A stretch of 64,000 nucleotides of DNA from an uncultured bacterium (GTDB lineage: Bacteria; Omnitrophota; Omnitrophia; Omnitrophales; Aquincolibacteriaceae), in contig CAZLTL010000003.1 in NCBI GenBank assembly GCA_964562525.1, positions 4,115-68,114 of the forward strand, given 5' to 3'. Below, piece after piece: positions 3,185-59,238 of this stretch. Under the pieces are notes generated by a model. That model was given only the letters and a program-made list of their open reading frames with translations. It had not been told where the DNA came from and did not search any database. Every line of letters starts with the position of its first letter. Positions within the stretch are counted from its first letter, which is position 1. The position numbers were made by a program, and so were the translations under genes.

Positions 3185-6100
3185 TTAAGCTGAAGTCATC
3201 ACACGGCGGGCTGCCGCGGAGAAAAGCTCCAGAACGGAAGATAAAAGGAAAATCCCCTCGCCTTTTCGGATCTGGAGATGCTGAATCCAGCGCGCAAAAC
3301 CTGTTGCCCATGCCGCTTCGATTTCATCCGTCCGCGTGGCGGCAAAAAAGGCCATCGCCTCCGGCACTAGTGCAAAGGAAACTTCGGTCGGCAAACTTTC
3401 AGCAGATAAGTTTCTCTGCCACGCCATACCTGCCAAAATTTCTCGCGCGCCAAACACACCATAATGATCGCGCCATTTAGCCGAGTTAAAAACATCGGTT
3501 GCCAACTGCCCCATAGCCTGAGGACCGTACATTTTAACTTGTTTGAGCTTGCCAAACTTCTTTTCAAAAGTGGCGCGCTCATAGTCGGTCCTGAAAACCA
3601 AAGCAAACCGATATTGCTTGGTACTTTGCCCCGGATACAACGTCTCAAATGATTTTTGAGTCAGCTCAATAAACTCGATCAGCTGAGATTCAATTTCAGG
3701 GGAGTAAAAAATAACCGGAGCCGTTTTTGGGATTTGCTTAGCGGCAATCGCATCTTTCCAACGAGTCAGAGCTTGCTGCCACAAAGCTTTTGCTTGCGGC
3801 GAAATTTGCCGCGCCTGCTGAACCAACCGAACCTCAATCGCCGTATCCGCCGCCATTTGCGCTTCAAGCCAATCCTGAAAACGAATTTCATCGTCACGCT
3901 CCTCGCTGTAAACAGGAGTCACCGCGTCTGAACCGATCCAAATCCCCAAATCTCGCGTTTCAGATCGGTGCACAGACCGAATCAATTCAACTAAGTCTTC
4001 GCGTGTTCCTTCTTCCTCCCACAATCGCTTAAGCTCATCGAGCTTTGCTCTAAAAGGATTCCAAACTTCAGTGCTGTTTAAATACATTTGTAACAAAAAA
4101 TACACCCCCAGCGTTTCGTATGGAATCGGTTTATCTTCAGACTCACCTGCATCATCTAAAAATATTTTTGAACTTTTATATTTTTCAAGATTCGCAGAAT
4201 TGCTGTCTGATTCAATCAACATTAATAAATCAAGTGTGCGCAAAACAATCGAACCATCACTAACAATCTCGTCGGGTGATAGCTCACGTTTGTACAAAAA
4301 CCCGATATCGTTACCAAAGCGATGCTCATTCATCCAACTGTTAAATGATATTTTAATTACAGACTCAGAAGCATCTTCAGTTTTCATCAGAGTAAATGCT
4401 TCTATACCAACCGTCATATCTTCCAACTCGCCAATAATGTGTTTTATCCGCCTCAGCTTATCTTGCAATCGCTGCCCATCTGCACGAGCTTCCGAGCGGC
4501 CGATATTAAAAATGTAGGTATTCGTTCCCGAGCCGTTAGGAAATGTCATCACACGCGGGTCGCCGAATTTTTCCTTGAGCATTTCAACATCAAGCTCACC
4601 TTTCATATCCGGCTGAGCGCCGTAGAGTACGAAATAGGATCCTGCCGGCGCATTTTCAATGCGTTCCAGCAATTGGCTGCGATGCTTCATATTCTCCAAA
4701 CCGGCCGAACCGCCCGCAAAATAATAATAAATCCGTTTTCGTTCAGGCTCGATTTTACCGTTGAGTGTAATTAAATTTATTCTCGAGGCATCCAAAAAAT
4801 TGCCGTTGATAGTCGCTATTTTTTCCGAAGCGTACTGTGATGATGCGCCAAAACCGATCCTTTGCCGTTCAAATTCGACGGTAAAACGATCAATTAGCAC
4901 TTTGCCGTCCGCAAACAAGGATTCATCCCCTTCGATTCCCACGGCTTTGTGCACGCCCAGATGCGCGGCAACAATCAAAGAAGTATTTAATCCGCTACCT
5001 AAATCGATGAAATCATGCTCGCCGGTTACGATGGGTTTCAAAGCCTGAATCACTTCGTCCATAGGCGAAGGAACAAAAATACCTGCCCACGTTTTTTTCC
5101 AAACAGATGGCAAACCGCCAAGTAAAATTTGATACTTCTGGGCCAAGATCGGCTTGGAGACATCTCTCAGCAAATCAAAAAACCATTGGTCATCCGCGCT
5201 GAGATTCATATCCCGCACCTGCCCTGAGTGCGTCGAACGGGTTTCAGAACGTTCATTTGACTCGGGGAATTGCAAACTAGAGTCAGGCTGATTAAATTCA
5301 GAATCGAATGCGCCGCCGGATCGATATAAATTTTTAATTTTTATAAAAAAAGAAATGCCTAGAGCTGTGAATCCAAAAACCGACATGGCCAACGGGATCA
5401 AACGCAGCCATGAAACTCCATTCAAAGTCAAAGAGAGAGCACTAACAACTACCCCAAAAAAACCAGATAACATCATCGGTATGCGCCAATCCATGAGCTC
5501 CGCCATCCAATCAATATTTTTTATATTTTGATTATTGGTTTGATTTAAGTCTGTGGCTTTTAACTCAACCCCGGCTATTGCTTCAACTATCTGTTCGACC
5601 ACTTGGACAACAGGGTTCAGAGGCCACATTCCGGTTATTTTTTCACCGCTAAAGTCACGATCTAATTCGGGCGCATAGGCTTCATCCAAAGCACTGCGCT
5701 CACGGGCAATTTCCGGAGTCATCGCATGAAAATACTCGTGGCCATATTCTTGTAAAGGAGTGTAGTCATGACTTGTATATCCCGTCTGCAAAGTGCGAAA
5801 CTTTGTGAGCACATCATAGTCACTGCCCTCTTCTCGAGCCTGCCCCCTGCGGAATACAAGCCCTATTTTTTCCGCATTCTCAGGTGATAAGCCAACGTAT
5901 CCTTTCTCAAAAAGCTCGTTGAATAAAGGACGTGCGCCAGGAGTTGCATCGATATCGCGATACATCGCATGCGATTCGAGTTGTCGTCCCGTTACATCAA
6001 CGTAAATAGGCTGAAGACCGGGATACTGAACAACCTGAACGACATGCCGAAGATAGCCCCCAAACACTAATGAAGCTCCGTGAATCGTTGATTTAATTTT

Positions 6101-9100
6101 TCCTGCGGATAACGAATAAAGACTGCGATGAAAACTAAGCGATGAAGACGTGCACCACCCCACCATAAAGTCTGCGGATAAATACAAAATGGGGTTACGA
6201 AATTGAATACCTGCAAGATGTGTCGCGGGATATTGATCCGAAGCCCACTTTCCATTATGAACACTCCAACTTGCCGTTTCGCCCATATAGGGCCCGGCAT
6301 GCTTCAATAGGGCCTCCCAAGATTCGTAAACCGCTTGCCGAATAATGACTTCAAGATCGTCTTGTGTCACTTTTGCGTCTGCTTCAAATAAACGAAAGAC
6401 GCGTTCAACCTCCGCAGCAGGCGGGGCCTCCACAATCGGCAGAGGTCCTTGTTTATTCATTTCGCTTAAGAGCGCAGTTTCTTCAGTTTCTGAAAGTTGA
6501 CGATCATTAATCCCCATGTATTTTTTGGGATGAACCGAAGTCCGTGTTTCGGAGCGTTGCAGCTTCACCGCGGAAATAACCCAATAATCTTTTTTGCTAT
6601 CGGTCAAATCGAACGAAATACTTTGGAAGCCGAAATCCGATAATGCGTCTTTAATTTCATCTTGGCTGTATTGACGATATTGAAACCCCTCAGCCAATTT
6701 GGATTCAGGCGGATAAGTCATGATAAAAATACTTCCGCCCGGTTTTAATACGCGCGAGGCATCTTGAACGGCACTTTTTAAATCTAAATGCCCGATGCTT
6801 TCGGGATAAATGACCGTGTCATAACTTTGCTTTTGAAACGGTAAAAGCTCCCCATGCGCGACAACCGTTATGATTTGACTTCGCACACCTTCACTCTGGT
6901 TGATAATTTGCAAAAATTCAGGCAGAACATCCGTCCCCGTCACTTCCGCCCCATACCGCCTAATCAAATCGCCTTCAAGCGCACCGATGCCGATTCCGAC
7001 AGAAAGAAGTTTTTTACCGCGGCTTCTTGCTCCTATCTGATCCGCCACATACTGTCTCAGCTTTGGATAACGAAGCAACGAACTCATATCTGCCCGAACA
7101 TAACCCGGATCAATGCGAGCAAAAGGCCCGTAAATTCTTTGGGTCTGCCGGACATTCTTTAAGATGCGTTTAACGTCAACGGCCCGTCCCGCCCTGGTTA
7201 ATTCTTCTGCGACTTCATGTGCAAAAGCTTCCGCGGGGCGGCCCAAAATATAAAGACGAACCGCGGCAGCGAGAATGACAGCGAGATAGTCTTTTTGTTC
7301 ACGCTTTTGGATGTGACGGCTCTCAAAAGCATTCATAACATCCTCTTTCAATCCGCGAAGATCTGAAAGCGTGTAACTCATACTCTCAACTTCTGTATAA
7401 ATCTCATCCAATTTCCCACGCATTTCGGAGCGGTTTAATTTCAAAACAAGGCTTTGCGGGTTTTCCGTCAGCTCAAATCCGAGGCGTTGCAACGGCACGG
7501 CAAAAACAGAACTCTGACGGGCTTCTTCGGCAGATAAATAGAAAAATAAATCTTCCGGCTTAGGATTAAAGTAAGTGCTGAAATAAATTTTTAAAAAATC
7601 AACTAAGCGGCGTCCATGCCCTTGACCACGGTAACCAGGTAACCCCGCTTCAGGTTCAAAAATTTGAAAGCGCAGCTGAAAGCTTTTTTCACCGATGCGG
7701 TTAAAAACAACATAACCAAGAATCGGAATATCTTGATCACCAAAAAGGATAATACCACCCAGATTGTCACGCCGACTCCAACGATAGAAACGGTTGTAGT
7801 TACGTTTACCGCTAACATCTGTTCCATGATCCCAAATAAAAGCGCGAGCATTGGTGTGAAGCACATCTTCATGATCAAGCGGTATGTCAGCCCCATCGCG
7901 AGCCATAGCAAGCCCGCGCCTTCCAAGCTCTTGAAGCAACTTTTGAAAAAATGCCTGTGATTCTTCAACACTAAAAAGATGGCTTTTAATTTCTGGGGCA
8001 CTCTCAGGTATGTGAGCTTGCGATGGCTTATTGAGAACTTCTTTTTTTAGAGCTGTCAAAGCGTAATAACCTACCGTTATTCCGATCAAGGCTATACTTG
8101 CAGCCACGATTGAAAGTGCCGAAGCTCCGCCCAAAATAAATATCAGTCCGACAACTGAGAGATTCACCCGCAAGTAAGTTTTAAGATCAAAACTGGGCTT
8201 TTGCGAATTCACCATATAGTTACGGAACAGCTGCATGAAAAGACCGAGGGTAAAAATAGTGGGTATGCGTAATAATTCCGGAACAATATCTTGTGCGATG
8301 TGATGCTGTGCTAGGAGCACGGGCAAACGCCCCCAAACACCTTTAAGATCTTTGCCCCACTGACTGCGAGTGGAATATGCGGCCTGAAGCTCGTCGATTT
8401 TATCCGGTGCCACATCTCCGCGTGTTTTTATTTCTGCCACACCGCGACGATTCCAATAGCCATTGAAGTAAACCGATATTAGGCTACTGAATGATACGCC
8501 GACAAAACCGCTGATTGCCGCGCGCAAAAGTGGCGAAGTAAATAAATCAACCCAATAAACATTGGCGGCAAATGCCACCACGCCCGTCAAAAATCGCACA
8601 CCCATAAATGCTGTAAAACGCTTTTTGACATGATATTGGTAAGCGGGATAATCACTGATCAGCTGCGTGTAATAATCTGCAATCGCCCCGGTCACAGAAG
8701 CGATCAAACCCGAAGCAACCAAGCTTCCCAACGCAAAATCGCCCCAGTAAAAAGAATTGATCCATGAGTAAAGGTTAAAGATAAAAGGAAAGCCAAAATA
8801 CCAGCTCGCAAGCTCAATCAATCCCCACGCCACCGCGCCTATCGCAATATGAAGATAAAACCGTTTTTTTGAAATTTGTTTATCAGAGGCAGCAACATCA
8901 GAGTATTGTTGATTAATCTTACGTACTTCAGAACGACTGACAACAATCACCTTCCAACCTTGATCATGCAAATAGCGCATTCCAGCAAGGTTATTGCGAC
9001 TCGCAACGACAGCGGTAAAAACATCATCATACTGAGATCGGTCGGGACCATTACGAAAAACCGTGGTAAAAGCAACATGAAATCCCTGCTCTAAAAGAAC

Positions 9101-12100
9101 CCGCACTGCGGCATAATTTTGATAATGATCGGACGCTACATAGACAAGCCCATCATCTTTCACAAGCTGTGCAGCCATCTCCGTAAAAACAGCCATATTC
9201 CCCGCTCTGGGGGTCGGCGAATTTACAGATACAAAATCCATCGAGCCCTTTCCGTGCTCCTTTAGAAATTCTTCATTGGTTGAATGGGCATCGTAATTTT
9301 CAGTTCCAAACATCTGAATTTGTAAGCCGGCTTTTGCAAAATAGGTTTGTGCTTGCGGTAAAAACCAACCCTCCCCCATCCCTAAATCAACGCCCTTTAA
9401 CTTTGGCCGCCCGTCAAATTGAGCCTTAATCAACCGCACAAAATCGGGAATAGGATTATTAATATCCGCCGACAATTCTCCTTCGGGCCACAGCATATCC
9501 ACACCCTCTTTAACTGTCGAAACAACGGTCGCAAAAGCATCCGTTGCTTTGGTTTCCTTCTCACCTCTTGCTTCAGAACGGTTCGCGGTCGTTCGCTGCT
9601 TCAGATCTTGAACGGGTAGAATCCAGTGCTGGGCCTTTGTTTTTTTAAGGAAAGCGTCAACGCGCTTATGGGTCACATCTTTGTGAGCGTGAATATCAAG
9701 AAAAAGCCGATCGGCTTCTTCTTTGTTGTCAGGTGGGTAATAACCGCGTGAAAGATTAAAAAGTACCCGTAAATAAAGATCCCCCAGACGAGATTTCGTG
9801 ATTTGGCTTTCCGCATCCACACGAATATGAATAGGGTTACGGCTGACCAGTCCCGCTAGCCAAGCGTTATACAAATCGTGCGTCTTAAATGCATATTTAC
9901 TGGTACTGTGGTCACGGTAAGCTTTAAAGACATTGAACGCAGCATTAATCGAGTGTGTTTTGATCCCATCTTTGTCCTTAAAAATTTGATAGATTGCATA
10001 AGCCACGGGCGTTCCGCGATCACTCGCATCTTTAAGATCAATCATATTGAAAAAAGTGACGCCGTAAACATTGCCCGGCAAAACAGGAACACTGACCATT
10101 TCCAACATTAACTTGCCGGGCTTAAGTGAATACAGGGTATGTCTTGCGTCTTTGGCGTTATCACGCATTGCGGTAAAATAGCTATGGTCAAAATAGTTTT
10201 CCATTTCAGGTGCCCCGCGCACCGCTTGCGCGAAACGCGTGACCTCCTGATGCGCTAATTCCTCGGCCAATGCATCGGACCGCACATTGGGCAAACTGCG
10301 AATTATTTTCAATCTCAGCGCGTCGGCCTGCTCTGATATTGTCATTTTGGATTTGGCAGCGCGAGCCTCAGAACGGCGGACAGGAATTCGAACTTTGACT
10401 TCGTTTACTAAGTTCTCAGGCAAGGGCTGAAAACCGCCCATTCGCATGAGATAGTTTCGACCGCTTAATCCTTCGATAAAAACCCGCTCGCCGTAGCGCT
10501 TTTGCTGATTGCGGTGAAATGCTTGCGCTTCTTCGGAAGGATCAACTTCAATCCATACCTCCGAGATACCTCTTTCCTTCATGTCAGAGAAAAAACGGTC
10601 GCGTAAACGGGTCGCTAACTTTAGGCCCTGCCGCCGCCACTTTTTAGCTACAAATAATCCGGTTGTGCGGACGCGCCCTGATGTTCCGCTCAAAAGACTA
10701 TCGTAAGCCTGCACCGCGGCCAATTCAGGCTTGCCATACTTGCCGGTTATTTTCCATTTAGAACTTACGTAAGCAATCCAGGCATAAGGCGGAATGCGCA
10801 CAGCCCATTCCTGCGAAAATTCAACGGCCTTTTGTTTTTCTTTCAAACTGAGGTCGGAATACTTTGCAAATGTAATTTTGTATTCATGATCCGCATTTTT
10901 CAAATCTGAATATGCCTGAAGTAATTTAAAAATCAACGCGCCCGCGGTAAAAACAACCGCAGCCGCGACAAAAGCAACCCCAAAGATAACGCCCCAAAAA
11001 GCGAATCCAAAAAAAGTTTTAAAAGCAAACCTGGCATCCTCCGTTTTATCGAGCCATTCGGGCTTATTTTTTTGTTGGATTAACTGCGGCCTGCTTTCAC
11101 CCTCACGCGCCTCCGAGCGCTGATAAATGCTGCGCGTCAATCCGGCAAGTTCCGAGACATTCACCTTAATTCCATCTCCCCAGCGAAAAGGCTTGATCGC
11201 GATATAGTTCGCTTTATGATTAGGAAAAGATTTCAATTCAACCAACGTTTCATCTCCGTTGGCTCTCTCAAATCCAATCTCATTCGGACCGTACCCGCGA
11301 AGATAAACAGCTTCCTCCTTTTGCCCATTCAAAAAAGCCTCCGGCTCAGAGCCATTGGTCGCCAAAGTAAACCACCCGCCCGTATAGGAAACACGCACAG
11401 ACTCAAAATGCTCTCGCATGACTCCGTCCGCATCCGCTTCGACCACAGCAAAACGAAACTCGCGCCCATCTCCCGTCCCTTGAAAAAAACGATCCGGAAG
11501 CATAAGCTCGAAATCACGCGGAATCAAAACTGCATCTTGATTTTTAGCTCCAAATTCCGAAAGAGTTTCAGCAAGGGAAACCGCATCGAACTTACTCGGG
11601 CGAACGGAAAGCTGTAAATCTTCAAAACGCCAAAGACGCGATTCCGAACGCCGCAAGGCGGGGCTGCGGATCTCTTCCCATGTAAGATTGCTTCGATTAA
11701 GAAAATCTTGAATTTCTTGAACAGCTTGATCGAGCCCCTGATTCATGGCTGCAGTTAATTCGGGTCGAACCCGTTCGCGAACTTGACGGCGATGATCTCC
11801 GTCGCGTGCTGCAACCAACGCGTTGAGTGCGTACTCCAGACGAAGCCATTTTTGGGCGGGCACGGTTCGCATTCGAGCAAAATACTTTTCGACGCTTAAA
11901 TGCTTTTCATCCGCATAAATATCTTTGAGATGAATGGTTGAAATCAAACTGTCCACCGCTTCTACATTTTCGTGAAAATCATCGACCAGTAGCGCATGGT
12001 CTTTGGCGATACCTGCAGATTCAAGATGCTTTTGAATAGCTTTCAGCTTTTCTATGCCCGCCCCATCCGTAAAAAGCCAATCCGTAATAGCACCTTCCCC

Positions 12101-15100
12101 GAAAATAGCCGTGGTCGTAGCAATAGTTTCCGGGCGAATTTTTTGGGGCCGCGCAGTCACAGCAACGATACGAACACCCTTTTTCCGCAGCTCTTGGTAA
12201 AAACCAATATCTAAATCAGATGCAGGTTCAAAATAACCGTTCTTTTTCATCCAAGCATGCATCTTATCCACAAACGGAAAGACAAGCCGGGCCGCCATGC
12301 TTCGCGCATTTTTTTCACCACTAAACTTTTCGGTAAGCTTTTGAATTAAAGACTGAATTTGCCCTTCGGAGCCATGCCATCCCCTTGTGCTAAAAGTCGT
12401 ATTGTCCAAATCAACATAAAGCACATCCAGCTGCTTGGCATTTGCTGCGCGCAAAAGCATGGCCTCAATCTCCTGCCATGACCGCGCTTCAAAGTGACGC
12501 CCGGCAAAAGGGCCTTTCCAACCGACCTTTAACTTCTCCCGCGCTTCGGAACGTTTATCCGTTGATTCCGGCTTTCGGATAATAAAAAAATCAAATAAAT
12601 CCGGGCTCAAAAATAAAGGTTCATCCCTCATCGCCTGCGGACGTTCTTTTCCATTAAGCGCAAAAACAGAGGGCTCCGCCTGAAGAGACTGTCTCAGATT
12701 TGAAAAATCGGTTACATTCGCCTTCCGCAGCTGATCAGGCGTCCACCATCCGCTGCTTTCAAGCGGTTGCCGGCTCCGCGTTTTAAAGCTTCCGTCACGG
12801 ATCGAAGCGAAGTACTTAAAAGAATCATCCCGAACGGGCAGCAAATAATGCCCGCGTGGCTGCCACCCCCGCGCCTTTTTGAATTCACTCGCAGCCCCGG
12901 GCTTAGGACGAAAAACAACTAAATCGCCCGCACGAATTTCATGCAAGTCTTGATTCAAACGGTATCGGAGCCCATTCACATTTTCAAAAATCTTAGCCAC
13001 AGCGTAATCAGCCAGTTTTTCCCCGCCTAAATACTGATTTAAAAACTCTAGCTGCTTGCGATTCAAGTTAATCTTAACTTGCGGCTCACGCCCCGGTTCC
13101 GGTCCGTCCAAAACAAACCGAGACTCGGAGCGGCGGATCGGATAACCGGAAACAATATGAAAATTAAGATCGGAAATCTTCGCCGGATCAACTTGTCCGC
13201 GGACAAAAACATACCGATCCATATGCCGTATTTTTCCGATATTGTTTTCTACCCCGCGATCCGTAATCACCATGACATTATTTGTCAGCGGATCGAAACG
13301 CACTCTCCTCCCAATTAATTCGGATTTGTCATAATCTAAATCTTGATCATCGACATCCGCGAGGATCCATCGATCGCCGTCTTTTTCATGTTTAAACTTA
13401 ACCTTTCGTATTCCTTCAAACGGCATGAAAAAAGCATCTTGAGCTGACGCGAAAACAAGACCGGGAGAGTGAAACTTATCAACAACATCCTCCCAGCTCC
13501 GGCCTCTGAAATCATTCAAATTAAAACCCTGCTTTTGGTCATACTCCAATTCCAAAGAAAATGCATCCCGGCCGATCCAAAAATCCCTGACATTTTTCCA
13601 ATGAAGAGGAATCAGCCTCTTGACCGGAAGACTTATAATTTCCGAAAAATTTAACCCGCGTGAATATTTTTCAAAAATTAAAAGCAACGGATAAACTCTT
13701 GTAATATCAATTTCAAAATGGCCCTGCTGATCGAAACCAACCGCTCCTATTAAAAATCGCAAAACAGCCCCGCCCACACCTCGTTTTCGATTGAGTTCAT
13801 AAACGGGGTCGGCCCATGTACCGGAGGGATAAACATCATGAAACTCATATACTTTTTTATCCCCCTCATCGCGTACATTGATGCTGACGGCACCGCCAAA
13901 TTCTTCCCATTGCTGGAAAATTCCTTGAAAATAAGGGTAAGTGATTTTTGCTCGAAATGACTGCCCGGTTATAGCATCCATGCGTCCAGGCACAATCGTC
14001 ACAATGACCGATGCTTGCGTGCGAGGAATTTTTACTTCGGCAACCAGCGGCGCATCTCCCTCGCGGGCTTGGTTGAGATACTCATTAACTTCACGTAATT
14101 CCGAACGCCTTACCTCCCGAATATGCCCAGCATGAATATTGGCGACAGTTTTGAGCGCTTCAAAACCTCGGTTAACGGACTGCGCGGCAAAGGTGGAGGC
14201 GGCAACCGAATCGAACCAAGCAATCGGAACTTGTGCAATTTGTTTTTTATTGAGAGCCGCAAGTAAAAGTAATTCGGAGTCAAAGGAAAAACTAAAATCA
14301 CGCGCCACAGGCAAAATCGCACGCAAGGTTTCAGGAGAAAATATTTTGAAACCAGCTTGGGTATCGCGAATATTTGAAATCGGCGAAAGCAGTAAGCGAA
14401 TAGCCCAGTTGTACATCAAGCTTGAAATGAGAGCCTGCCAATTGCGTCCTTCCGTGTACGATCCTTTTCCGCGGCGAACGCCAATCGCGGCTCCGTTCAA
14501 AACTGTTTCAGCCATCGGTTTAATTAAAAGCCCGGTTAAAAGCAAGTTGGCCGAAATATCCATGTCGGTATAACCAATGTAATGTTTTCCGCGCGGTCGG
14601 ATGCTATTGAGAGCTGCGTTTAAGCCTAAATGCACAGCCCCGCCCTTCGGCCCCCTTTTCACACTGGGTGCTAATCTTAAAATTTGAACTTGCTGCGGAT
14701 CCAGTTTTGATGACCGGCGCAAACGTTTTAACAAACTGACCGTTTCCAAATCAGGAGAACCATCATCCACAAAAACCATCCGCCAATGAAACTGCGGATT
14801 GATTTCACGCAACATTTGGAGCTGTTCAAACTTCACTCGAAAGGCATCTTCTCCGGCAGGATAACGCGCTGATGGCCGGTGCAAACGCTCAATTTCATTG
14901 TAAGCGGGAATTCCCCAGGTAACCGTAACATCCTGTGTAAGCCCGCGAATCACATCCATCGACTCATCGATTTTCTTTTGCTCAATGCCCTTCGCATCGC
15001 GGCCGCGCAAAGTAAAATCATCGCTTCGCGTTTCAGACCGCATAACGTTTCGCCCAGACTTCAATTCTGCCGATTGATGAGAGGGCTCTTGATCGCGGAG

Positions 15101-17371
15101 CTTTATTTCACGCGCAGTGTTTTCAACTTCATACCGATGACTAACAAAAAAATCGTACAGCTCAGCTACGGAACTTAAAGCACGTCCCATCCAATAAACT
15201 CCAATACCAAAAACTGCCGCAATGGTACCAGCAACGAAACCTTGTCTAAAATGTTCAAACCTGTCGTCAAAGAGAAATAGAAATCCAATACCCATAAACG
15301 CGCTGAAACTTAGAGCAAATACTTTCTGCATTCCAACCCAATAAATTCGGTATTCACGCGGAAGAAGAACCAGATTCTTTTGAATCCATGCATCTAGCCC
15401 CTTGCTCACTAAAGACTCAAAAAGAAAACTTGAACGGATCCACTTCCAAGCTCGAATAATTTTCTTCTCTTTCTCCGCAAAGAAATGATCTCTTGCAACT
15501 GTCTGAACAGCTTGATCCCAAACCCCTTCAGTTATGGTGGATGCACCCATCGGATTTGCAATCTTTCTCACGGCATCAACTGGTTGAACCAGTAAGTTAA
15601 CAGGAAGGGCTTGATCCATCGGGATGAGAAATGGACTTTGAGTCATTGCTTGAGATACAGCTTGAGCCGTTGTCGGCGACTTTAAATGACTCCGCCATTG
15701 GTAGCGAAATCTTTGTCTCGTAGGCTCCGACATAAAATCTGCCAGCCAACCATGAAGAGGCTCGGCAATTTTAACCGCTTGATTAAGCTTCTTAAGATCA
15801 GCAAGCCGCAAAATAAGCCGCTTGCGCCAATTTAAAAGCAAATCGTAAACCTGACCGGGATGATCTTTTGCATAAGCCTGAAGTAAATAGCTCCAATAAG
15901 CTTTTTGAAGATTAACTTGCCCATTTACAGCTTTCATTTGCGATCGCCAGCCTATGTTTCCCTGCATTAATTCCACATAGCGGTCAGCCCCTTCCAAAGA
16001 ATCAATACTCGGCGTGATAACCGCAAAATTCCAACCCTGCTTTTGGGCGATTTGCTCAAGCCCTTGCTTGTGAAAGCCCCCCGAGACAAACACCACCGTT
16101 TCCGATGAGCGAAAGCTGGCAGCGATATGTTTCTGCATTTTCTCTTCACGCTTAAACTGAACCGCGTAAAAATCCTTAAATGACTGCCAATCAGGGCTCT
16201 CAAGATTCATTCTCTTCACTGTCTGCCAATCGGACAAACTCAACTCCATTCGAACCAACTTCTCAAGCAAGCGAATCCGCAAAGTTTGTTTAAGTAAAAG
16301 ATGTTGCGCGGATTTTGTAAAGTAAGTTGAAAGTTTCTGTATCAAAAACCCTTGATACTCAGCTGCAAGCTCAGCTGTTTTAATTTCTTGCCATTCACGC
16401 TCCGAGCGCAATGCAAAATGATAAAGCCGCTTCTCCAATGCGTTCACTTTATTAAATAAGTCGGCAGGCAAAAGCTGTTCTAATTTTTGTGCGGATTGCG
16501 TAACAGATAGTCGCCCTGTCTGGACGTCTTTTTGCAGGGCCAATAATGCCAAACGCTCCGCTGGACCCGCAACCTGTTTGGCCAACGACCCAAGACACCG
16601 CTGCCAAAACTGAACTATCGCCGGGCGTTTTAAATGATTTTGAATTTGAACCTGACGGCGAACGGCTTCTAAGTGAGGAAAGTGCTCTGCGAATGATTCA
16701 TCCGGAAACTGCAGAATAAGCGGCAGCGCCTCGAACGAGTCTTCGGAAATAAATCTGTCCCATTTCAGAGCTTCTGTAGAATAACTTTTCTGCTTGGATT
16801 TCGAAATAATTTCACGCGCACGCTCGAGCCTAACTAAAACAGACTCCTGTTTTTTTATCGCGCTTTGATAAAGTTCTACAGCCCTATAATAAAGTTCCTT
16901 AGACTCCGCGGCTTGCGGCATAAGCAAATCAGATAAAATTAAAGCTGCGGCACCCCCGCTAATGTTTTGAGCCACAACATCTGCTTCGATTTTTTTTCGC
17001 AGCCAATCACGATCAGGAAAACTATGCTCTAACGCCAAGTGTGACGACTCATTTAAACCTTCCAAGTGCAAGGCAAAAGCACCGTAACGCGCACGAATAT
17101 CTTCAATCAGTTTCCAAATCGATTTTTGTGCCGAAGAAACAGCGTGCGCGTCCTCAATCACCAGAAGCGTTTTACCTGACTCTCCATGCTTGCGATTCTG
17201 AATCCGCCCCCATTTTTCTGAAAGCTGCAGTTTGTTAATTTGAATGGCAGATTCAGAAACAACAGTCGCAAGGCGCGGAGCCGCTTGTGCGTCGGAAGAC
17301 AAGAACCCCGATAATTGCAAAGCAATTAACAGCACTGCCACCGCTTTTTTAAAAACGTTCTTTTTCGCCAT
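3185..17371 (-). CDS. Giant multidomain secreted/membrane protein 1 (4728 aa). Order: signal peptide, TraB/GumN-like N-domain, TM pairs, GT2, HAD, GNAT, SAM-MTases, punctuated by recurrent RSExR motif
   Basis: Uninterrupted 14.2 kb ORF. N-terminal MAKKNVFKKAVAVLLIALQLSGFLSSDAQAAP signal peptide. Recognisable catalytic motifs across the whole length (see domain features). Opposite-strand ORFs inside are short shadow ORFs. Confidence 0.85.
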   Translation of the reverse strand: MAKKNVFKKAVAVLLIALQLSGFLSSDAQAAPRLATVVSESAIQINKLQLSEKWGRIQNRKHGESGKTLLVIEDAHAVSSAQKSIWKLIEDIRARYGAFALHLEGLNESSHLALEHSFPDRDWLRKKIEADVVAQNISGGAAALILSDLLMPQAAESKELYYRAVELYQSAIKKQESVLVRLERAREIISKSKQKSYSTEALKWDRFISEDSFEALPLILQFPDESFAEHFPHLEAVRRQVQIQNHLKRPAIVQFWQRCLGSLAKQVAGPAERLALLALQKDVQTGRLSVTQSAQKLEQLLPADLFNKVNALEKRLYHFALRSEREWQEIKTAELAAEYQGFLIQKLSTYFTKSAQHLLLKQTLRIRLLEKLVRMELSLSDWQTVKRMNLESPDWQSFKDFYAVQFKREEKMQKHIAASFRSSETVVFVSGGFHKQGLEQIAQKQGWNFAVITPSIDSLEGADRYVELMQGNIGWRSQMKAVNGQVNLQKAYWSYLLQAYAKDHPGQVYDLLLNWRKRLILRLADLKKLNQAVKIAEPLHGWLADFMSEPTRQRFRYQWRSHLKSPTTAQAVSQAMTQSPFLIPMDQALPVNLLVQPVDAVRKIANPMGASTITEGVWDQAVQTVARDHFFAEKEKKIIRAWKWIRSSFLFESLVSKGLDAWIQKNLVLLPREYRIYWVGMQKVFALSFSAFMGIGFLFLFDDRFEHFRQGFVAGTIAAVFGIGVYWMGRALSSVAELYDFFVSHRYEVENTAREIKLRDQEPSHQSAELKSGRNVMRSETRSDDFTLRGRDAKGIEQKKIDESMDVIRGLTQDVTVTWGIPAYNEIERLHRPSARYPAGEDAFRVKFEQLQMLREINPQFHWRMVFVDDGSPDLETVSLLKRLRRSSKLDPQQVQILRLAPSVKRGPKGGAVHLGLNAALNSIRPRGKHYIGYTDMDISANLLLTGLLIKPMAETVLNGAAIGVRRGKGSYTEGRNWQALISSLMYNWAIRLLLSPISNIRDTQAGFKIFSPETLRAILPVARDFSFSFDSELLLLAALNKKQIAQVPIAWFDSVAASTFAAQSVNRGFEALKTVANIHAGHIREVRRSELREVNEYLNQAREGDAPLVAEVKIPRTQASVIVTIVPGRMDAITGQSFRAKITYPYFQGIFQQWEEFGGAVSINVRDEGDKKVYEFHDVYPSGTWADPVYELNRKRGVGGAVLRFLIGAVGFDQQGHFEIDITRVYPLLLIFEKYSRGLNFSEIISLPVKRLIPLHWKNVRDFWIGRDAFSLELEYDQKQGFNLNDFRGRSWEDVVDKFHSPGLVFASAQDAFFMPFEGIRKVKFKHEKDGDRWILADVDDQDLDYDKSELIGRRVRFDPLTNNVMVITDRGVENNIGKIRHMDRYVFVRGQVDPAKISDLNFHIVSGYPIRRSESRFVLDGPEPGREPQVKINLNRKQLEFLNQYLGGEKLADYAVAKIFENVNGLRYRLNQDLHEIRAGDLVVFRPKPGAASEFKKARGWQPRGHYLLPVRDDSFKYFASIRDGSFKTRSRQPLESSGWWTPDQLRKANVTDFSNLRQSLQAEPSVFALNGKERPQAMRDEPLFLSPDLFDFFIIRKPESTDKRSEAREKLKVGWKGPFAGRHFEARSWQEIEAMLLRAANAKQLDVLYVDLDNTTFSTRGWHGSEGQIQSLIQKLTEKFSGEKNARSMAARLVFPFVDKMHAWMKKNGYFEPASDLDIGFYQELRKKGVRIVAVTARPQKIRPETIATTTAIFGEGAITDWLFTDGAGIEKLKAIQKHLESAGIAKDHALLVDDFHENVEAVDSLISTIHLKDIYADEKHLSVEKYFARMRTVPAQKWLRLEYALNALVAARDGDHRRQVRERVRPELTAAMNQGLDQAVQEIQDFLNRSNLTWEEIRSPALRRSESRLWRFEDLQLSVRPSKFDAVSLAETLSEFGAKNQDAVLIPRDFELMLPDRFFQGTGDGREFRFAVVEADADGVMREHFESVRVSYTGGWFTLATNGSEPEAFLNGQKEEAVYLRGYGPNEIGFERANGDETLVELKSFPNHKANYIAIKPFRWGDGIKVNVSELAGLTRSIYQRSEAREGESRPQLIQQKNKPEWLDKTEDARFAFKTFFGFAFWGVIFGVAFVAAAVVFTAGALIFKLLQAYSDLKNADHEYKITFAKYSDLSLKEKQKAVEFSQEWAVRIPPYAWIAYVSSKWKITGKYGKPELAAVQAYDSLLSGTSGRVRTTGLFVAKKWRRQGLKLATRLRDRFFSDMKERGISEVWIEVDPSEEAQAFHRNQQKRYGERVFIEGLSGRNYLMRMGGFQPLPENLVNEVKVRIPVRRSEARAAKSKMTISEQADALRLKIIRSLPNVRSDALAEELAHQEVTRFAQAVRGAPEMENYFDHSYFTAMRDNAKDARHTLYSLKPGKLMLEMVSVPVLPGNVYGVTFFNMIDLKDASDRGTPVAYAIYQIFKDKDGIKTHSINAAFNVFKAYRDHSTSKYAFKTHDLYNAWLAGLVSRNPIHIRVDAESQITKSRLGDLYLRVLFNLSRGYYPPDNKEEADRLFLDIHAHKDVTHKRVDAFLKKTKAQHWILPVQDLKQRTTANRSEARGEKETKATDAFATVVSTVKEGVDMLWPEGELSADINNPIPDFVRLIKAQFDGRPKLKGVDLGMGEGWFLPQAQTYFAKAGLQIQMFGTENYDAHSTNEEFLKEHGKGSMDFVSVNSPTPRAGNMAVFTEMAAQLVKDDGLVYVASDHYQNYAAVRVLLEQGFHVAFTTVFRNGPDRSQYDDVFTAVVASRNNLAGMRYLHDQGWKVIVVSRSEVRKINQQYSDVAASDKQISKKRFYLHIAIGAVAWGLIELASWYFGFPFIFNLYSWINSFYWGDFALGSLVASGLIASVTGAIADYYTQLISDYPAYQYHVKKRFTAFMGVRFLTGVVAFAANVYWVDLFTSPLLRAAISGFVGVSFSSLISVYFNGYWNRRGVAEIKTRGDVAPDKIDELQAAYSTRSQWGKDLKGVWGRLPVLLAQHHIAQDIVPELLRIPTIFTLGLFMQLFRNYMVNSQKPSFDLKTYLRVNLSVVGLIFILGGASALSIVAASIALIGITVGYYALTALKKEVLNKPSQAHIPESAPEIKSHLFSVEESQAFFQKLLQELGRRGLAMARDGADIPLDHEDVLHTNARAFIWDHGTDVSGKRNYNRFYRWSRRDNLGGIILFGDQDIPILGYVVFNRIGEKSFQLRFQIFEPEAGLPGYRGQGHGRRLVDFLKIYFSTYFNPKPEDLFFYLSAEEARQSSVFAVPLQRLGFELTENPQSLVLKLNRSEMRGKLDEIYTEVESMSYTLSDLRGLKEDVMNAFESRHIQKREQKDYLAVILAAAVRLYILGRPAEAFAHEVAEELTRAGRAVDVKRILKNVRQTQRIYGPFARIDPGYVRADMSSLLRYPKLRQYVADQIGARSRGKKLLSVGIGIGALEGDLIRRYGAEVTGTDVLPEFLQIINQSEGVRSQIITVVAHGELLPFQKQSYDTVIYPESIGHLDLKSAVQDASRVLKPGGSIFIMTYPPESKLAEGFQYRQYSQDEIKDALSDFGFQSISFDLTDSKKDYWVISAVKLQRSETRTSVHPKKYMGINDRQLSETEETALLSEMNKQGPLPIVEAPPAAEVERVFRLFEADAKVTQDDLEVIIRQAVYESWEALLKHAGPYMGETASWSVHNGKWASDQYPATHLAGIQFRNPILYLSADFMVGWCTSSSLSFHRSLYSLSAGKIKSTIHGASLVFGGYLRHVVQVVQYPGLQPIYVDVTGRQLESHAMYRDIDATPGARPLFNELFEKGYVGLSPENAEKIGLVFRRGQAREEGSDYDVLTKFRTLQTGYTSHDYTPLQEYGHEYFHAMTPEIARERSALDEAYAPELDRDFSGEKITGMWPLNPVVQVVEQIVEAIAGVELKATDLNQTNNQNIKNIDWMAELMDWRIPMMLSGFFGVVVSALSLTLNGVSWLRLIPLAMSVFGFTALGISFFIKIKNLYRSGGAFDSEFNQPDSSLQFPESNERSETRSTHSGQVRDMNLSADDQWFFDLLRDVSKPILAQKYQILLGGLPSVWKKTWAGIFVPSPMDEVIQALKPIVTGEHDFIDLGSGLNTSLIVAAHLGVHKAVGIEGDESLFADGKVLIDRFTVEFERQRIGFGASSQYASEKIATINGNFLDASRINLITLNGKIEPERKRIYYYFAGGSAGLENMKHRSQLLERIENAPAGSYFVLYGAQPDMKGELDVEMLKEKFGDPRVMTFPNGSGTNTYIFNIGRSEARADGQRLQDKLRRIKHIIGELEDMTVGIEAFTLMKTEDASESVIKISFNSWMNEHRFGNDIGFLYKRELSPDEIVSDGSIVLRTLDLLMLIESDSNSANLEKYKSSKIFLDDAGESEDKPIPYETLGVYFLLQMYLNSTEVWNPFRAKLDELKRLWEEEGTREDLVELIRSVHRSETRDLGIWIGSDAVTPVYSEERDDEIRFQDWLEAQMAADTAIEVRLVQQARQISPQAKALWQQALTRWKDAIAAKQIPKTAPVIFYSPEIESQLIEFIELTQKSFETLYPGQSTKQYRFALVFRTDYERATFEKKFGKLKQVKMYGPQAMGQLATDVFNSAKWRDHYGVFGAREILAGMAWQRNLSAESLPTEVSFALVPEAMAFFAATRTDEIEAAWATGFARWIQHLQIRKGEGIFLLSSVLELFSAAARRVMTSA
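6700..7110 (-). other. Class I SAM-dependent methyltransferase-like domain inside giant protein 1 (approximate coordinates)
   Basis: LSVGIGIGALEGDL (motif I-like), DTVIYPESIGHL, LKPGGSIFIMTY (post-III motif). Confidence 0.5.
11820..12430 (-). other. HAD-superfamily phosphatase-like domain inside giant protein 1 (approximate coordinates)
   Basis: Motif I VLYVDLDNTTF (DxDxT), motif II VAVTAR, motif IV LLVDDFHENVEAV. Verified on minus strand near 12395-12430. Confidence 0.55.
14190..14970 (-). other. Family-2 glycosyltransferase (DPM1/GtrB-like) domain inside giant protein 1 (approximate coordinates)
   Basis: IPAYNE, VFVDDGSPD, GPKGGAVHLG, YTDMD (DxD), DTQAGFKIF. This is the canonical GT2 motif order. 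Confidence 0.7.
15960..17190 (-). other. N-terminal domain of giant protein 1, paralogous to the N-domain of giant protein 2; possibly TraB/GumN/Tiki-like (approximate coordinates)
   Basis: LLVIEDAHAVSSAQKSIWKLIEDIRARYGAFALHLEG ... VVFVSGGFHKQGL in protein 1. The counterpart in protein 2 is VILIQDAHAIPDAQKNIHALIRHFEKKYGVKNVALEG ... VILVAGGFHTQGM. The two His-containing motifs (xxAH / GGFH) resemble TraB/GumN GxxH motifs. Confidence 0.35.
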
Positions 17372-38734: not shown

Positions 38735-39274
38735 ATGACTCAAAAACGCGCAGCCACAATAAGTCTCCTGAGCCTGTTTTCTTACCTGCTTGTGGCTTGC
38801 GCCTCAAAACAACCGCTGCCGCCATCGGGTGACGCACCTTACTTTAATTGGATTCAGCCATCTACCCCCGAATCCTCTTTGACGGGAAAAGCGTATTTCT
38901 GGCCTGCTCCAAGCGGCGAGAGTGTCCGAATAAAAATCATGCTGACGGGCGCGGTTCCGGAAAAAGAGTATTTTGCCCATATTCATGAAAAAGGCGGTTG
39001 CGCGGATGAAGCCCAGGCCGCGGGAAAAATTTACAGGCCGACGGGTTCTTTTCTGGGGTTTGAGACAAAACAGTCCGGGCTATTGGCTAAAATCGAATCC
39101 AACGCTGATGGTACGGCAGAATTTGAGGGAGAATTCAAAAGGTTTTCGCTTGCGAACGGCAAAAATAATATCGCCGGAAAATCGATTGTCATCAGCGGCG
39201 ACGAAACCACATTGACCCGCGCCGGGTGTACCGTCATTCCCGTTCCAAAGCGCGAGGGCAAATCCGCGGATTAA
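38735..39274 (+). CDS. Lipoprotein with Cu,Zn-superoxide-dismutase-like fold but incomplete metal ligands
   Basis: Lipobox LLVAC. AHIHEKGGCADEAQAAGKIYRPTGS and NADGTAEFEG...IAGKSIVISGDETT parallel SodC blocks (FHVHE.G.C..AG.HFNP ; ADG.A ; GRSLVIHAGGDD), but the His63/71/80/120 equivalents are absent. Stop overlaps the stop of giant gene 2 by 4 nt (convergent). Confidence 0.5.
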   Translation: MTQKRAATISLLSLFSYLLVACASKQPLPPSGDAPYFNWIQPSTPESSLTGKAYFWPAPSGESVRIKIMLTGAVPEKEYFAHIHEKGGCADEAQAAGKIYRPTGSFLGFETKQSGLLAKIESNADGTAEFEGEFKRFSLANGKNNIAGKSIVISGDETTLTRAGCTVIPVPKREGKSAD

Positions 39275-42200
39275 GCCGCCGCCTGAATCTGCTTCGTCGC
39301 GGCATATTCTTGAGCCAGACGCATCAAGACATTCATCGAAACCGCAAGCCTTCCATCCTTAAAAGTCAAAGCCTGCACGATGTTCTGAAAATACCCGGCG
39401 TCCGCAAGCAGCATGGGAATATTATTCATCTGATCACGGCTTTTTACTTTACCTGACAGCAAAATCGCCACAAGCATCCGCATCAACACATCCGCTTTTT
39501 GGCGCTGAACATCGTTAAAATCAGCAAAGCCGTCTTCATCAGAAATCAAATCGACGATACTTTCGCTTTTTTGCGACGCGCCTTCTCCGCCAGCGCTAAA
39601 AATCGACAATAAAACGGGAGCTCCCTTTTTAACTGCGCTCACCAAAGAATTCACGCGCCTTACCATCGTTGCGGGAACTTTTAAATTCGCCATTGTTTTA
39701 GGCAGCACAAACCGCACTCCATCTCCAAACGCAAACTCTTGAATGGCTTGCTGCAAAGCAATCTCAAGCTCCGGAGCATCCAAAGCAATTTCCACTTCTG
39801 ACTTTGAATTCTGTAAAAGGACATCCGCAAAAAACAACTCCAGGTTTTGAATTTGTTTGGTCTGATTACCCTCCCAACTCGCCACCATTTCATCGCGCAG
39901 CTTTTGAACCGCCGCCAAATACTCATCAAATCCAACCCTTTCAGCATCGCTCACAACTTGCCGTGCTTGCGAATCAGCTTGCTGTGGACTTAAAGCCAAA
40001 ACTTCAGCCTGAAAGACACCTAATAACCTAGGTGCCGATTCAACTTCTTCAACAACTTTACGACTTTCCGATCGGCTTACGATCGCCCTCTCTGCAGAAA
40101 CTTCCCGCGATTCAGAACGAGCAAGTTCAAAGCCGGTATTCAAACGAGAGAAACTTGTAAATGAATTCGGTAAATCACCCTCAAAATGAACTCTCTCCTG
40201 CTCTTCATCAACTCGATCAATAACATAAGTTTTGCCATTCATGATATTTTTTACGCTATCGCCAACTCTCCATTTTGGCAGCTTGCCTTTAACAGCAACG
40301 TCGGGCTCTTTAACATAAATCCAACCCTCTCTAAAATCAGCGTAATTAGGTTGATTTTTACTCACGAGAGCCTCATTAAAATTAAATCCTTGCATATCAC
40401 GGAAAGCAACTCTTTTATATCCAGGAATATTGCCCTCATCTTTTAAGGTCACGATAACGTTCGACTTGAAAGGGATGGCTTGAATAGGAACATTCGTCCT
40501 GAGTGCCGCTTTTCTCAAGTACGCGCTAAATCCTTCATAAACATTCCGGCTATTGGCAACTGAATCAGAATCAATTTTTGTCTGCTCATAAATGATTGTT
40601 CTTTTCTTTGAATTGCCCGCAGAACCATCTGATGACCAAACAAAATCAATATAATCAAAATCACTATTTTCACCTCTTGCCGGATCCCCTTTTCGAGGAG
40701 CTTGAATTTGCTCGGCACCAAGCGCCTCGAGCTGCCAGGTGATTGCCGCCAAATTGCTTCCGACGGCTGCAAGAAGCTCGGTATTGATGTATCCATTTGT
40801 TGCCAAGGATGCCATGAATATCTCTTTTAAAGAATCCGGCGGATTGTCACGATCCGGTTGTTTCGGAGTAAGAGGAAGAATATCCCGAATATGAACCACT
40901 TCAGCATCGAATAAAATCAGCGGAGTAATGGCATCGGCGCCGCCGTAATCATACCCGACCCGACTCGTATCGAACCCATTTTCTCGAATCCATTTTTGAA
41001 CAATCAAAGAGGCATCAACCAATTTTCGGGTCATGGTCCGATTTTTGACTAAGTTTCTATAATTTGACAACCCTTCAACTTTAAAATCACCCTTTGCGGC
41101 GGAATCGATTAAAGGCCATAAATGCTCTTGAACGCCCTCGGGTAGCAGCAGATAACGACGCTCCGTAAAATAATGCACTCGAAGCATCTCTTCGAGCAAA
41201 AGTTCCCTGTCTGCAGCATTTAAAGGGCTGAGGCTGATAAAGTTTTCATACAGCTGATGCATGCTCGTGAGTCTCAGTTTCTGGCCGCGCTGAGCAATTA
41301 AACTTTGTAAACCAAAAATAACACTAAAATCTTGTTCACTAAGAACCCCCTCTAAAGCGCTAATTAAAAGCGGCCAACTTTTTTCGAAGTTAAATTTTCC
41401 GTCATGAACACTTTGACCCGAAACTTGCCCAAAAACATACATAGCACGCATAAAGTTTTTGAGAGATTCATCTATTTTCATACGATTAATTTCCTCAACA
41501 GCAATTTTTATTTTAACAACCGCTGAGCTAACAACATACTGAGGGGCTTGTTTTTCAATTTGCTTCTCAAAAAAATCAACGCCATGCATCACATTAACCA
41601 TGCGCGCAACCTGAATAGCTGCCCGGTCAAAATCCAAAGTAATCACAAAAGAATCATCGCTCAATGATCGCGCCATCGCTTTCCAATTTTCAAAAATTTC
41701 TCGCTTACCAAAACGATTCAGCATCGACTCAAAAAAATCTTGTTTTTTAAGAATCTCCTCAAACAGCTTTTTGTAAAGAGCTCTCTGTTCACTTACGTCT
41801 TTAAACTTTTCTTGCAAATCAGCATGCTGAATAATTTTATCCGCGACCAAAACAACTTCTTCAAACACCTCCGCCATTCGCATTTCACTTCTATCAGAAG
41901 CAGACTCACTAGCCTTGCCTTGCATGTTTAATTCAACTTTTTTTGAATCTTTATTACTGCGCGGAATCCAAATACCATAGCGCAAGGGCCGCCCTTTTCT
42001 CTCTTCTACTTCAAAGTACACCGCGTCATGATTTGTTAATTTTCCCTTCGTTGCTTTTTCTCGCAAAGCGTCCCTAACCTGAGTTGCTTTTTTGACACCA
42101 TCAAAGTCAAGCAGCACACCCTCCTTAGTCGAACCGGCCGGAATATCATCCGTGAAAGCAAACAAAGCTTGGGGCCAATTAACATCAATGGCATCCATCA

Positions 42201-59040: not shown

Positions 59041-59118
59041 TGGCGTCCCCAAGCGGATTTGAACCGCTGTTACCAGGATGAAAACCTGGTGTCCTAGACC
59101 GACCTAGACGATGGGGAC
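59041..59118 (-). tRNA. tRNA-Glu (anticodon TTC), CCA encoded
   Basis: GTCCCCATCGTCTAGGTCGGTCTAGGACACCAGGTTTTCATCCTGGTAACAGCGGTTCAAATCCGCTTGGGGACGCCA. Confidence 0.85.
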
Positions 59119-59149
59119 GCGAAAACCAAATTGTATAAGTTCAAACCAC

Positions 59150-59229: not shown

Positions 59230-59238
59230 AGATCGAAA

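Follow-up and report, generated by a model that had tools for sequence, protein, structure and literature searches.

A giant modular protein family of Omnitrophota with a fixed frame, exchangeable cassettes and an R-S-E-x-R motif at module boundaries

Results

Two giant genes of one family

We analysed a 64-kb stretch of contig CAZLTL010000003.1 (64,000 nucleotides; hereafter the window) from an uncultured bacterium of the Omnitrophota, which carries two giant open reading frames (ORFs), A and B, whose products are divided into modules by a recurrent pentapeptide, R-S-E-x-R (RSExR). ORF A lies on the minus strand at 3185-17371, stop codon included, and runs uninterrupted from an ATG start through 4,728 codons in the ORF translation of the window. 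NCBI holds an identical protein (NCBI-derived P0001; 130,358-bp contig; a singleton at 90% identity), confirming the single 14.2-kb ORF of 4,728 residues (aa) that an initial annotation of this DNA had described. As about 5% of random codons are stops, 4,728 open codons cannot have arisen by chance. No stretch of 30 nt or more in ORF A recurs as a direct DNA repeat, whether within the ORF itself or elsewhere in the window, ORF B included. ORF B (39271..57807, minus strand; 6,178 aa; 12 RSExR motifs) is a second giant of the same family, located 22 kb from ORF A and absent from the initial annotation. The two resemble each other only in the N-terminal ∼550 residues, with 28% identity (E 4e-38), self-BLAST revealed no internal protein repeats in either, and hydrophobic helices are far fewer in B than in A.

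The product of ORF A, all of whose features are given here on the minus strand, opens with a signal-peptide-like N-terminus (aa 1-30; 17282..17371), in which a basic n-region (MAKKNVFKK) is followed by a hydrophobic core and by AQA preceding A, and a like segment occurs across the family. This agrees with the signal peptide proposed earlier. Behind it lies a head domain resembling the TIKI/TraB/ChaN/EreA proteins and containing a large helical insert (aa ∼40-575; 15647..17254); the N-terminal domain recognized in the initial annotation therefore exists, although it spans ∼560 rather than ∼450 aa. A hydrophobic hairpin of two putative transmembrane helices follows (aa 684-702 and 711-731, that is aa 684-731; 15179..15322; hydropathy), matching the transmembrane pair previously placed after the N-terminal domain. 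Module 2 (aa 783-1088; 14108..15025) is a complete GT2 enzyme, polyprenyl-phosphate beta-glucosyltransferase-like. Its Pfam match is sub-threshold (E 0.05, 13.9 bits against a cutoff of 23.3), yet a search of 5.8 billion proteins returned 91 matches, almost all of them PF00535 proteins and most bearing the name dolichyl-phosphate beta-glucosyltransferase, which upholds the GT2 call. The matched proteins are stand-alone, ∼246 aa long and aligned nearly end to end (for example, subject residues 6-243 of 246 with residues 32-300 of 306), and on this alignment the interval comprises one complete enzyme plus ∼25-30 linker residues at its N-terminal side.

Database support for the remaining modules was more varied. 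Module 11 (aa 3319-3605; 6557..7417) is solidly a class I S-adenosylmethionine (SAM) methyltransferase, as had been claimed, with a Pfam Methyltransf_11 match at aa 3434-3598 (E 2.6e-13) and matches to O-methyltransferases in the PDB down to 1.9e-8. Module 7 (aa 2090-2332; 10376..11104) combines a 45-aa hydrophobic stretch, by hydropathy, with a GNAT acetyltransferase whose Pfam score (aa 2232-2287, 24.7 bits against a cutoff of 20.7) confirms the first GNAT call. In module 5 (aa 1612-1907; 11651..12538) the DLDNT and VDD motifs of a HAD-like phosphatase are present, but the Pfam match is weak (Acid_phosphat_B, aa 1639-1752, E 4.5e-4, 20.2 bits, cutoff 27). Module 10 (aa 2818-3313; 7433..8920) holds ∼6-7 hydrophobic helices by hydropathy, where a block of 8-10 transmembrane helices had been counted, together with a GNAT-like segment, the second GNAT call, that Pfam matches weakly (E 0.004). 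Module 13 (aa 4046-4291; 4499..5236) contains a weak DOT1/Rossmann methyltransferase-like segment (DOT1, E 0.017), corresponding to the third methyltransferase-like call, whereas the segment proposed as methyltransferase-like from the string VDLGMGEG received no hidden Markov model support. PDB sequence searches found nothing for the GT2 or HAD modules. The C-terminal module (aa 4474-4728; 3188..3952) ends in ...RRVMTSA-COOH, with the -SA tail typical of the family. By hydropathy, three of the four internal transmembrane clusters are hairpin-like (684-702 plus 711-731; 2113-2157; 3961-3980 plus 3985-4016), and even-numbered hairpins would leave the flanking modules on the same side of the membrane; the suggestion that the modules are threaded to alternating sides is thus not backed. 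The initial interpretation as a whole is partly supported, its central point, that unrelated enzymes and hydrophobic segments are joined in one genuine ORF, having been confirmed. It did not include the RSExR motif, the TIKI-like character of the head that A and B have in common, or the conserved tail.

ORF B has the same layout, again on the minus strand. Its TIKI-like head domain spans aa 15-562 (56122..57765). A Methyltransf_28 enzyme occupies a 361-aa interval (aa 2394-2754; 49546..50628) with RSEMR on both sides, and a GlnD-type uridylyltransferase region with an ACT domain occupies a module of 1,087 aa (aa 3187-4273; 44989..48249), a length that we take to be about that of a whole GlnD. 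After a motif doublet at aa 5897 and 5912 comes, directly behind RSESR, the canonical C-terminal domain of the family (aa 5917-6178; 39274..40059), ending in ...QIQAAA-COOH. The 3' part of ORF B (40001-42000) has the lowest G+C content in the window (0.413 against ∼0.46) and could represent a recently acquired cassette.

A pentapeptide at the module boundaries

The RSExR pentapeptide occurs 14 times in ORF A, at intervals of 177-501 residues and each time at a module boundary, where composition alone predicts ∼0.03 copies per thousand residues, or ∼0.1 for the whole ORF. Read from the N-terminus, and all on the minus strand, the copies are RSETR at aa 778 (15026..15040), RSELR at aa 1089 (14093..14107), RSESR at aa 1414 (13118..13132), RSEAR at aa 1607 (12539..12553), RSESR at aa 1908 (11636..11650), RSEAR at aa 2085 (11105..11119), aa 2333 (10361..10375) and aa 2598 (9566..9580), RSEVR at aa 2813 (8921..8935), RSEMR at aa 3314 (7418..7432), RSETR at aa 3606 (6542..6556) and aa 4041 (5237..5251), RSEAR at aa 4292 (4484..4498) and RSETR at aa 4469 (3953..3967). 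In all six frames of the window there are 29 matches to RSExR, 26 of which fall in ORFs A (14) and B (12). One match elsewhere, RSESR at 34151-34165, lies in a tRNA region that has no plausible gene and was taken as chance. The codons of the 26 copies vary, with CGN and AGR used for arginine, TCN and AGT for serine, GAA and GAG for glutamate and a free fourth codon. Such synonymous variation means that a peptide rather than a nucleotide element is conserved, and points to selection at the protein level.

The median spacing of the motif is 323 aa, so that the cassettes are about one whole protein each, and where this could be checked each cassette is a complete enzyme. Across A and B no Pfam domain is cut by a motif, and each supported domain stands alone between two of them. 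The sequence around the motif has the character of a linker (for example, ...VKLQRSETRTSVH...): the fraction of hydrophobic residues falls from 0.33 to 0.21-0.25 within five residues on either side, and that of disorder-promoting residues reaches up to 0.63 immediately after it. At 78 family junctions two or three copies lie 5-30 residues apart, as in GRSEARSLRSEARSV.

The enrichment extends to relatives of A and B, with 211 motifs observed against 4.3 expected in 62 ORFs and 764 against 12.5 in the 150 best-scoring proteins. At the same loci, family ORFs carry 1.16 motifs per 1,000 aa and the remaining ORFs 0.11; the non-family matches are nearly all in broken continuations or adjoining copies of family genes, and the large non-family ORFs at these loci contain none. 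Individual lineages have their own versions of the motif, RAExR, RTE[LM]R and RPExR among them, giving the general form [R/K/H]-[S/A/T/P]-E-x-R, and this lineage specificity suggests a co-evolving reader. In one relative, P0040, three regions (∼1340-1370, 1800-1850 and 2295-2370) consist of tandem 21-residue units (SLDRTEMRPVTDVAGLHK.F.), each with RTEMR, in a layout reminiscent of a multi-copy peptide precursor.

Cassettes are exchanged as motif-bounded units

We numbered the motif-bounded segments of ORF A 1-15 from the N-terminus and compared them with two relatives, P0003 (5,246 aa) and P0004 (4,761 aa). The head is 52-53% identical to those of both relatives and segment 4 is 37-41% identical, while the last module reaches 26-27%. 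Segments 6, 7 and 8 are 95%, 89% and 96% identical to counterparts found in P0003 only, and segment 10 is 82% identical to one found in P0004 only. Identities for segments 11, 12 and 13 range from 76 to 88%, module 13 being 81-82% identical in P0003 and P0004. Segments 2, 3, 5, 9 and 14 are absent from both proteins. The comparison of ORF B with P0002 gave a similar picture: identity is 82-89% for the head, the tail and one cassette and 24-27% for two other cassettes, and a further four have no counterpart. The edges of the homology blocks with P0003, P0004 and P0002 fall within 0-2 residues of a motif, and since homology is delimited by the motif in this way, cassettes are gained, lost and replaced as motif-bounded units. 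Such exchange would account for the fast diversification of these genes.

A fixed frame in a large Omnitrophota family

To define the extent of the family, a profile of the A and B head domains was searched exhaustively with HMMER against 1.84 billion cluster representatives. The head family comprises 7,535 representatives at E<=1e-3, of which 5,629 also reach E<=1e-10. In every one of the 150 top-scoring matches listed, the head lies at residues ∼1-650, and the lengths of these proteins range from 225 to 7,984 aa. A word-indexed protein search returned 0 matches both for the head alone and for a 36-sequence head alignment; with more than 7,500 representatives found by HMMER for the same family, such negatives are here no sign of orphan status. 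Scanning one genome per species identified 60 loci, almost all of which carry the label Candidatus Omnitrophota, and single genomes contain several paralogues; the labels support an Omnitrophota origin of ORF A. The closest related locus is in UBA2337, with 53% identity over the head domain. The sole locus labelled neither Omnitrophota nor 'uncultured bacterium', L057 (CAYZXT010000001.1, uncultured Elusimicrobia), has a head of 21% identity in a 3,276-aa ORF with neither a recognizable motif variant nor an -AA/-SA tail, and could be either a distant offshoot or a bin with the wrong label.

A and B are thus members of a very large family of modular giants that is specific to Omnitrophota and in which the frame is fixed and the content can be exchanged. 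The frame has a signal-like segment and a head of ∼560 aa at the front, then cassettes that vary from member to member, and last a C-terminal module terminating in -[A/S]A-COOH. The signal-like N-terminus is present in 123 of 145 family proteins (85%), and in ∼70% of members the first motif comes 175-225 residues past a GGFH sequence, directly behind the head domain. At the other end, 139 of 176 family proteins terminate in -AA or -SA (...MTSA in A, ...QAAA in B), preceded by a conserved terminal element of ∼55 residues. When the last ∼300 residues were compared, 103 of 139 members, B included, fell into one similarity cluster, whose profile matches B from just past the last RSESR to its end (E 1e-23). 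It does not match A, and iterative searches with the C-terminal 260 aa of A stayed at four close relatives; the last module of A is therefore not the canonical C-terminal domain of the family, despite its -SA. A structural model of the C-terminal domain of ORF B (predicted local distance difference test (pLDDT) score 75.6) shows a Rossmann-like alpha/beta fold of a generic kind, for which no informative structural neighbour was found, its first 30 residues, RSESR included, having pLDDT values <50. At three loci the ORF directly upstream of the family gene also ends like a family member (L003 2-9724, ...QAAA; L005 3621-7370, ...KQAA; L008 3-3047, ...EHSA), indicating that members sometimes occur in tandem. 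No conserved neighbour gene, such as a protease, transporter or chaperone, was found across the 60 loci, the best cluster being present at 11 of 60 and resembling local synteny.

The head resembles the TIKI superfamily

Eight head residues (D74, H76, E104, E156, R408, G431, G432 and H434 in the numbering of A) are invariant in 36 heads. Of 211 sequences, 202 retain the whole set and the others are fragments or carry single substitutions. The AlphaFold2 model of the head (pLDDT 77.9) predicts an alpha/beta core with a central parallel sheet, the fold of the TIKI superfamily, divided by a helical insertion of ∼230 residues. Fold scores against structures were 7.6 for ChaN, 7.1 for a TraB-family protein, 6.7 for HopBA1, 6.3 for EreC and 6.0 for RRSP. 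Foldseek gave nothing significant, with HopBA1, BcR135 and ChaN among its top ten, and a PDB sequence profile search with the head found nothing. No curated family model was matched above its gathering score; single members gave Pfam matches below cutoff to Cofac_haem_bdg (best E 0.017; 4 of 36), TraB_PrgY_gumN (best E 0.003; 2 of 36) and Erythro_esteras (best E 0.097).

RRSP is a sequence-specific endopeptidase whose active TIKI catalytic set comprises E3900-x-H3902, E3930 and H4030 with a conserved R4001 (PMC6254334). In the head, D74-x-H76, E104 (+28), R408 and H434 (+26) parallel E3900-x-H3902, E3930 (+28), R4001 and H4030 (+29) of RRSP. Because the pattern of RRSP is reproduced with nearly the same spacings, the head probably belongs to the TIKI/TraB/ChaN/EreA superfamily, as a divergent and unclassified branch. 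It shares with the superfamily the order (E/D)-x-H, a glutamate ∼28 residues on, an arginine and then a histidine ∼26-29 residues on, as well as the core with its parallel sheet, but differs in having aspartate for the first glutamate, in the helical insertion, in scoring below every Pfam family cutoff and in invariably forming the N-terminal part of a giant modular chain. TIKI and PrgY are extracytoplasmic, a location that the head, too, would have. The head may be a protease, an esterase or something else.

Chromosomal surroundings

The genes around ORF A are ordinary chromosomal ones, encoding an acyl-ACP desaturase, a response regulator, UvrC, MurJ, HolA, LptE, ComEC, LeuRS, SurE and Sua5, and the setting is the chromosome of a diderm bacterium. 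The desaturase (1139-2137, minus strand; FA_desaturase_2, E 3e-122) belongs to the soluble acyl-ACP family, which is found mostly in plants and actinobacteria. A 109-aa ORF at 2859-3188 (plus strand) is without a Pfam match, runs towards ORF A with a 4-nt overlap at the stop codon of the latter, and is perhaps not a genuine gene. At 27864-29242 (minus strand) lie two adjoining genes resembling type II secretion accessory genes, one for an AAA_22 ATPase, presumably ExeA/GspA-like, and the other for a protein with weak T2SSB/T2SSC matches; no tie between them and the giant genes was found. Two repeats are associated with tRNA genes. The first, a perfect 38-nt direct repeat (34371-34408 and 34524-34561), has one copy overlapping tRNA-Leu (34315-34401) and the other adjoining tRNA-Ala (34565-34640), and could be a scar left by integration or a piece of tRNA that was duplicated. 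The second, a 49-nt repeat of 86% identity (59082-59130 and 59190-59238), has one copy overlapping tRNA-Glu (59041-59118) and the other within the spacer before tRNA-Lys, and looks like a partial tRNA duplication.

Discussion

A candidate polyprotein

From the architecture, which was observed directly, we infer a mechanism. The best explanation in our view is that these giants are polyproteins, made up of whole enzymes and processed where the motif stands, with the head domain of the chain as a possible agent, an account to which we give about even weight. The motif would serve as a recognition or cleavage site at which the chain is split into separate enzymes and membrane modules, and cleavage there, considered alone, seems to us evenly balanced. 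The best candidate for the processing enzyme would be the protein's own TIKI-like head, because the first motif directly follows it in most members and no conserved partner gene lies nearby; that the head itself does the cutting is nonetheless doubtful. With a signal peptide ahead of the head, the place of processing would be outside the cytoplasm. In its fullest form, which we hold only tentatively, RSExR and its variants would form a cleavage code, read by the TIKI-like head as it cleaves each junction of the chain to which it belongs and frees up to dozens of complete enzymes, the gene being a swappable 'operon in one protein' and its product possibly an exported cargo for host or prey. The most speculative step is this last one, in which multi-enzyme cargo would be exported by host-dependent bacteria. 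What recalls a polyprotein is the combination of whole enzymes, a short conserved motif at each boundary between them that is flexible, often duplicated and co-varying with lineage, and a conserved hydrolase-type domain at the front.

Several points weigh against this account, which as a whole is read from sequence. In A and B the first motif lies 200-400 residues past the head domain. In about one third of family members a motif stands 3-5 residues from the C-terminus, which is hard to square with a pure cleavage site and suggests a role in binding or recognition. The fold scores of the head are moderate, and since the TIKI fold also occurs in esterases (Ere) and in ChaN, which binds haem, the head might be something other than a protease. 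There is also a topological paradox, as a signal peptide and transmembrane hairpins would place enzymes dependent on SAM, acetyl-CoA and uridine diphosphate (UDP)-sugars outside the cytoplasm.

Alternative explanations

Some of these points would fit an uncut, membrane-tethered multi-enzyme scaffold in which the motif would be a conserved linker element, either modified itself or bound by a chaperone, by a partner or by the head. Nielsen & Lui interpret such proteins as membrane-anchored multi-enzyme architectures; a cut at the C-terminal motif found in about a third of members would free only a tripeptide, and among the Pfam matches of A, B and two relatives there was no dedicated protease from any classical family. 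We nevertheless consider the scaffold unlikely, though a serious competitor. The cassettes are unrelated and their order is arbitrary and fast-changing, unlike that of a co-adapted assembly line, doubled and tripled motifs in short flexible spacers typify processing sites rather than structural joints, and the head keeps a full hydrolase-type catalytic set in essentially all members. The topological paradox makes it worth considering, on the other hand, that the proteins are exported effectors of the MARTX kind, leaving the cell as whole chains by way of the signal peptide, and that their hairpins aid entry into host or prey, where the enzymes would be freed and active. This account overlaps with processing at the motif, to which it adds a target compartment. 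A signal-like N-terminus in most members, two constant ends enclosing internal cassettes that are swapped among close relatives, as in polymorphic toxins, and a cargo that needs cytoplasmic cofactors yet sits behind a signal peptide would all fit; Omnitrophota have been described as host-dependent or predatory, and a TIKI-fold endopeptidase is already known as a MARTX component. We rate export of this kind as rather improbable all the same: neither RTX repeats, a cysteine protease domain nor type I secretion genes were found, the cargo is housekeeping-like (adenylate kinase, a phosphoenolpyruvate-utilising enzyme, GlnD, methyltransferases) rather than made up of recognizable toxins, and this genome has no known host.

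The two remaining alternatives concern the DNA itself. That ORF A is an artefact, whether a chimeric assembly or adjoining genes fused by sequencing errors, could be argued from its being a mosaic of cassettes that occur separately in P0003 and P0004, but is extremely improbable. There are no repeats of at least 30 nt within or between A and B to mislead an assembler, ORF A opens with the family head domain and closes with the family tail, and thousands of independent relatives of 1-8 thousand residues have the same layout. Moreover, the breakpoints of the mosaic fall exactly on a motif of 15 nt with degenerate codons, not on common sequence, and exchange bounded by so short and degenerate a junction argues against chimeras. 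Almost as improbable is that the repeated element works at the level of DNA or RNA, as a recombination site or an RNA-processing signal, with the peptide as its mere translation. The breakpoints of cassette exchange do coincide with the element, but its 26 copies vary in their arginine, serine and glutamate codons so that the peptide alone is conserved, and direct DNA repeats were not detected; on these two grounds a DNA-level repeat was rejected as the origin of the motif.

Relation to known systems

Processing at the motif, which we continue to prefer, invites comparison with the polyproteins of viruses (picornaviruses, flaviviruses and others). These likewise concatenate whole proteins, with a short conserved peptide at each boundary and a protease, here a candidate one, in the same chain. 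The family differs in being chromosomal and bacterial, with many paralogues per genome and freely exchangeable content where viruses have a fixed set for replication, and in the fold of its candidate protease, and cleavage here is deduced from the sequence. If cleavage occurs, the family would represent a large chromosomal polyprotein system in bacteria and a new role for the poorly understood bacterial TIKI/TraB fold.

In the MARTX toxins of Vibrio and its relatives, a giant chain with a constant frame carries a strain-variable mosaic of enzymes, and cleavage in the linkers frees the cassettes. A constant frame and a mosaic repertoire among relatives are found here too, and MARTX systems include a TIKI-fold site-specific endopeptidase, RRSP. 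There, however, the TIKI domain is cargo and not the processing enzyme, and the secretion signal is C-terminal, whereas the present family has an N-terminal Sec-type signal. The Pfam matches of A and B include neither RTX/glycine-rich repeats nor the inositol-phosphate-activated cysteine protease domain (CPD), and no type I secretion or activation genes lie beside A and B in the window, where the neighbours are housekeeping genes.

Other giants of the phylum are comparable as well. The initial annotation knew of no described family with this architecture and held the content to differ from that of reported Omnitrophota giants; both statements are outdated. Among Omnitrophota giants of at least 10,000 aa, Nielsen & Lui (bioRxiv 10.64898/2026.06.07.730766) recognize a class named 'multi-enzyme metabolic cluster'. 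Its commonest Pfams include the PF08241 methyltransferase, PF00583 GNAT and HAD, and most of its proteins have a signal peptide and/or transmembrane helices. Like that class, A and B are Omnitrophota proteins with diverse enzymes, no dominant repeat and signal or transmembrane segments; at 4,728 and 6,178 aa they lie below its threshold, which is operational and not biological. West-Roberts et al. (2023 preprint) reported giants of 30,000+ aa, suspected their cleavage by an N-terminal C39 or S8 peptidase and declared the cleavage points unknown, a gap that blocked their analysis. The archaeovorin/dockerin-type giants of that study are unlike A and B, in whose Pfam matches HEAT, dockerin/TSP3, a C39/S8 head and SecA-like domains are absent. 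The giants of the two preprints share with A and B the phylum, the tiling of unrelated enzymes along one chain, the usual signal or transmembrane segments and the suspicion of cleavage, and both preprints leave undecided whether the chains stay whole or are cut. The text of neither mentions TIKI, TraB, a junction motif, linkers, a polyprotein, the C-terminal tail or motif-bounded exchange, and literature searches for 'RSExR' and for Omnitrophota with 'polyprotein' returned nothing relevant within incomplete journal coverage, so that a description elsewhere is possible. In conclusion, multi-enzyme giants of Omnitrophota were already known, while the motif, the head with its family frame and the motif-bounded exchange appear to be new. 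A motif enriched ∼50-fold and placed exactly at the module boundaries of thousands of proteins provides the first candidate cut points for the giants of this phylum, and could divide them into units for structure prediction.

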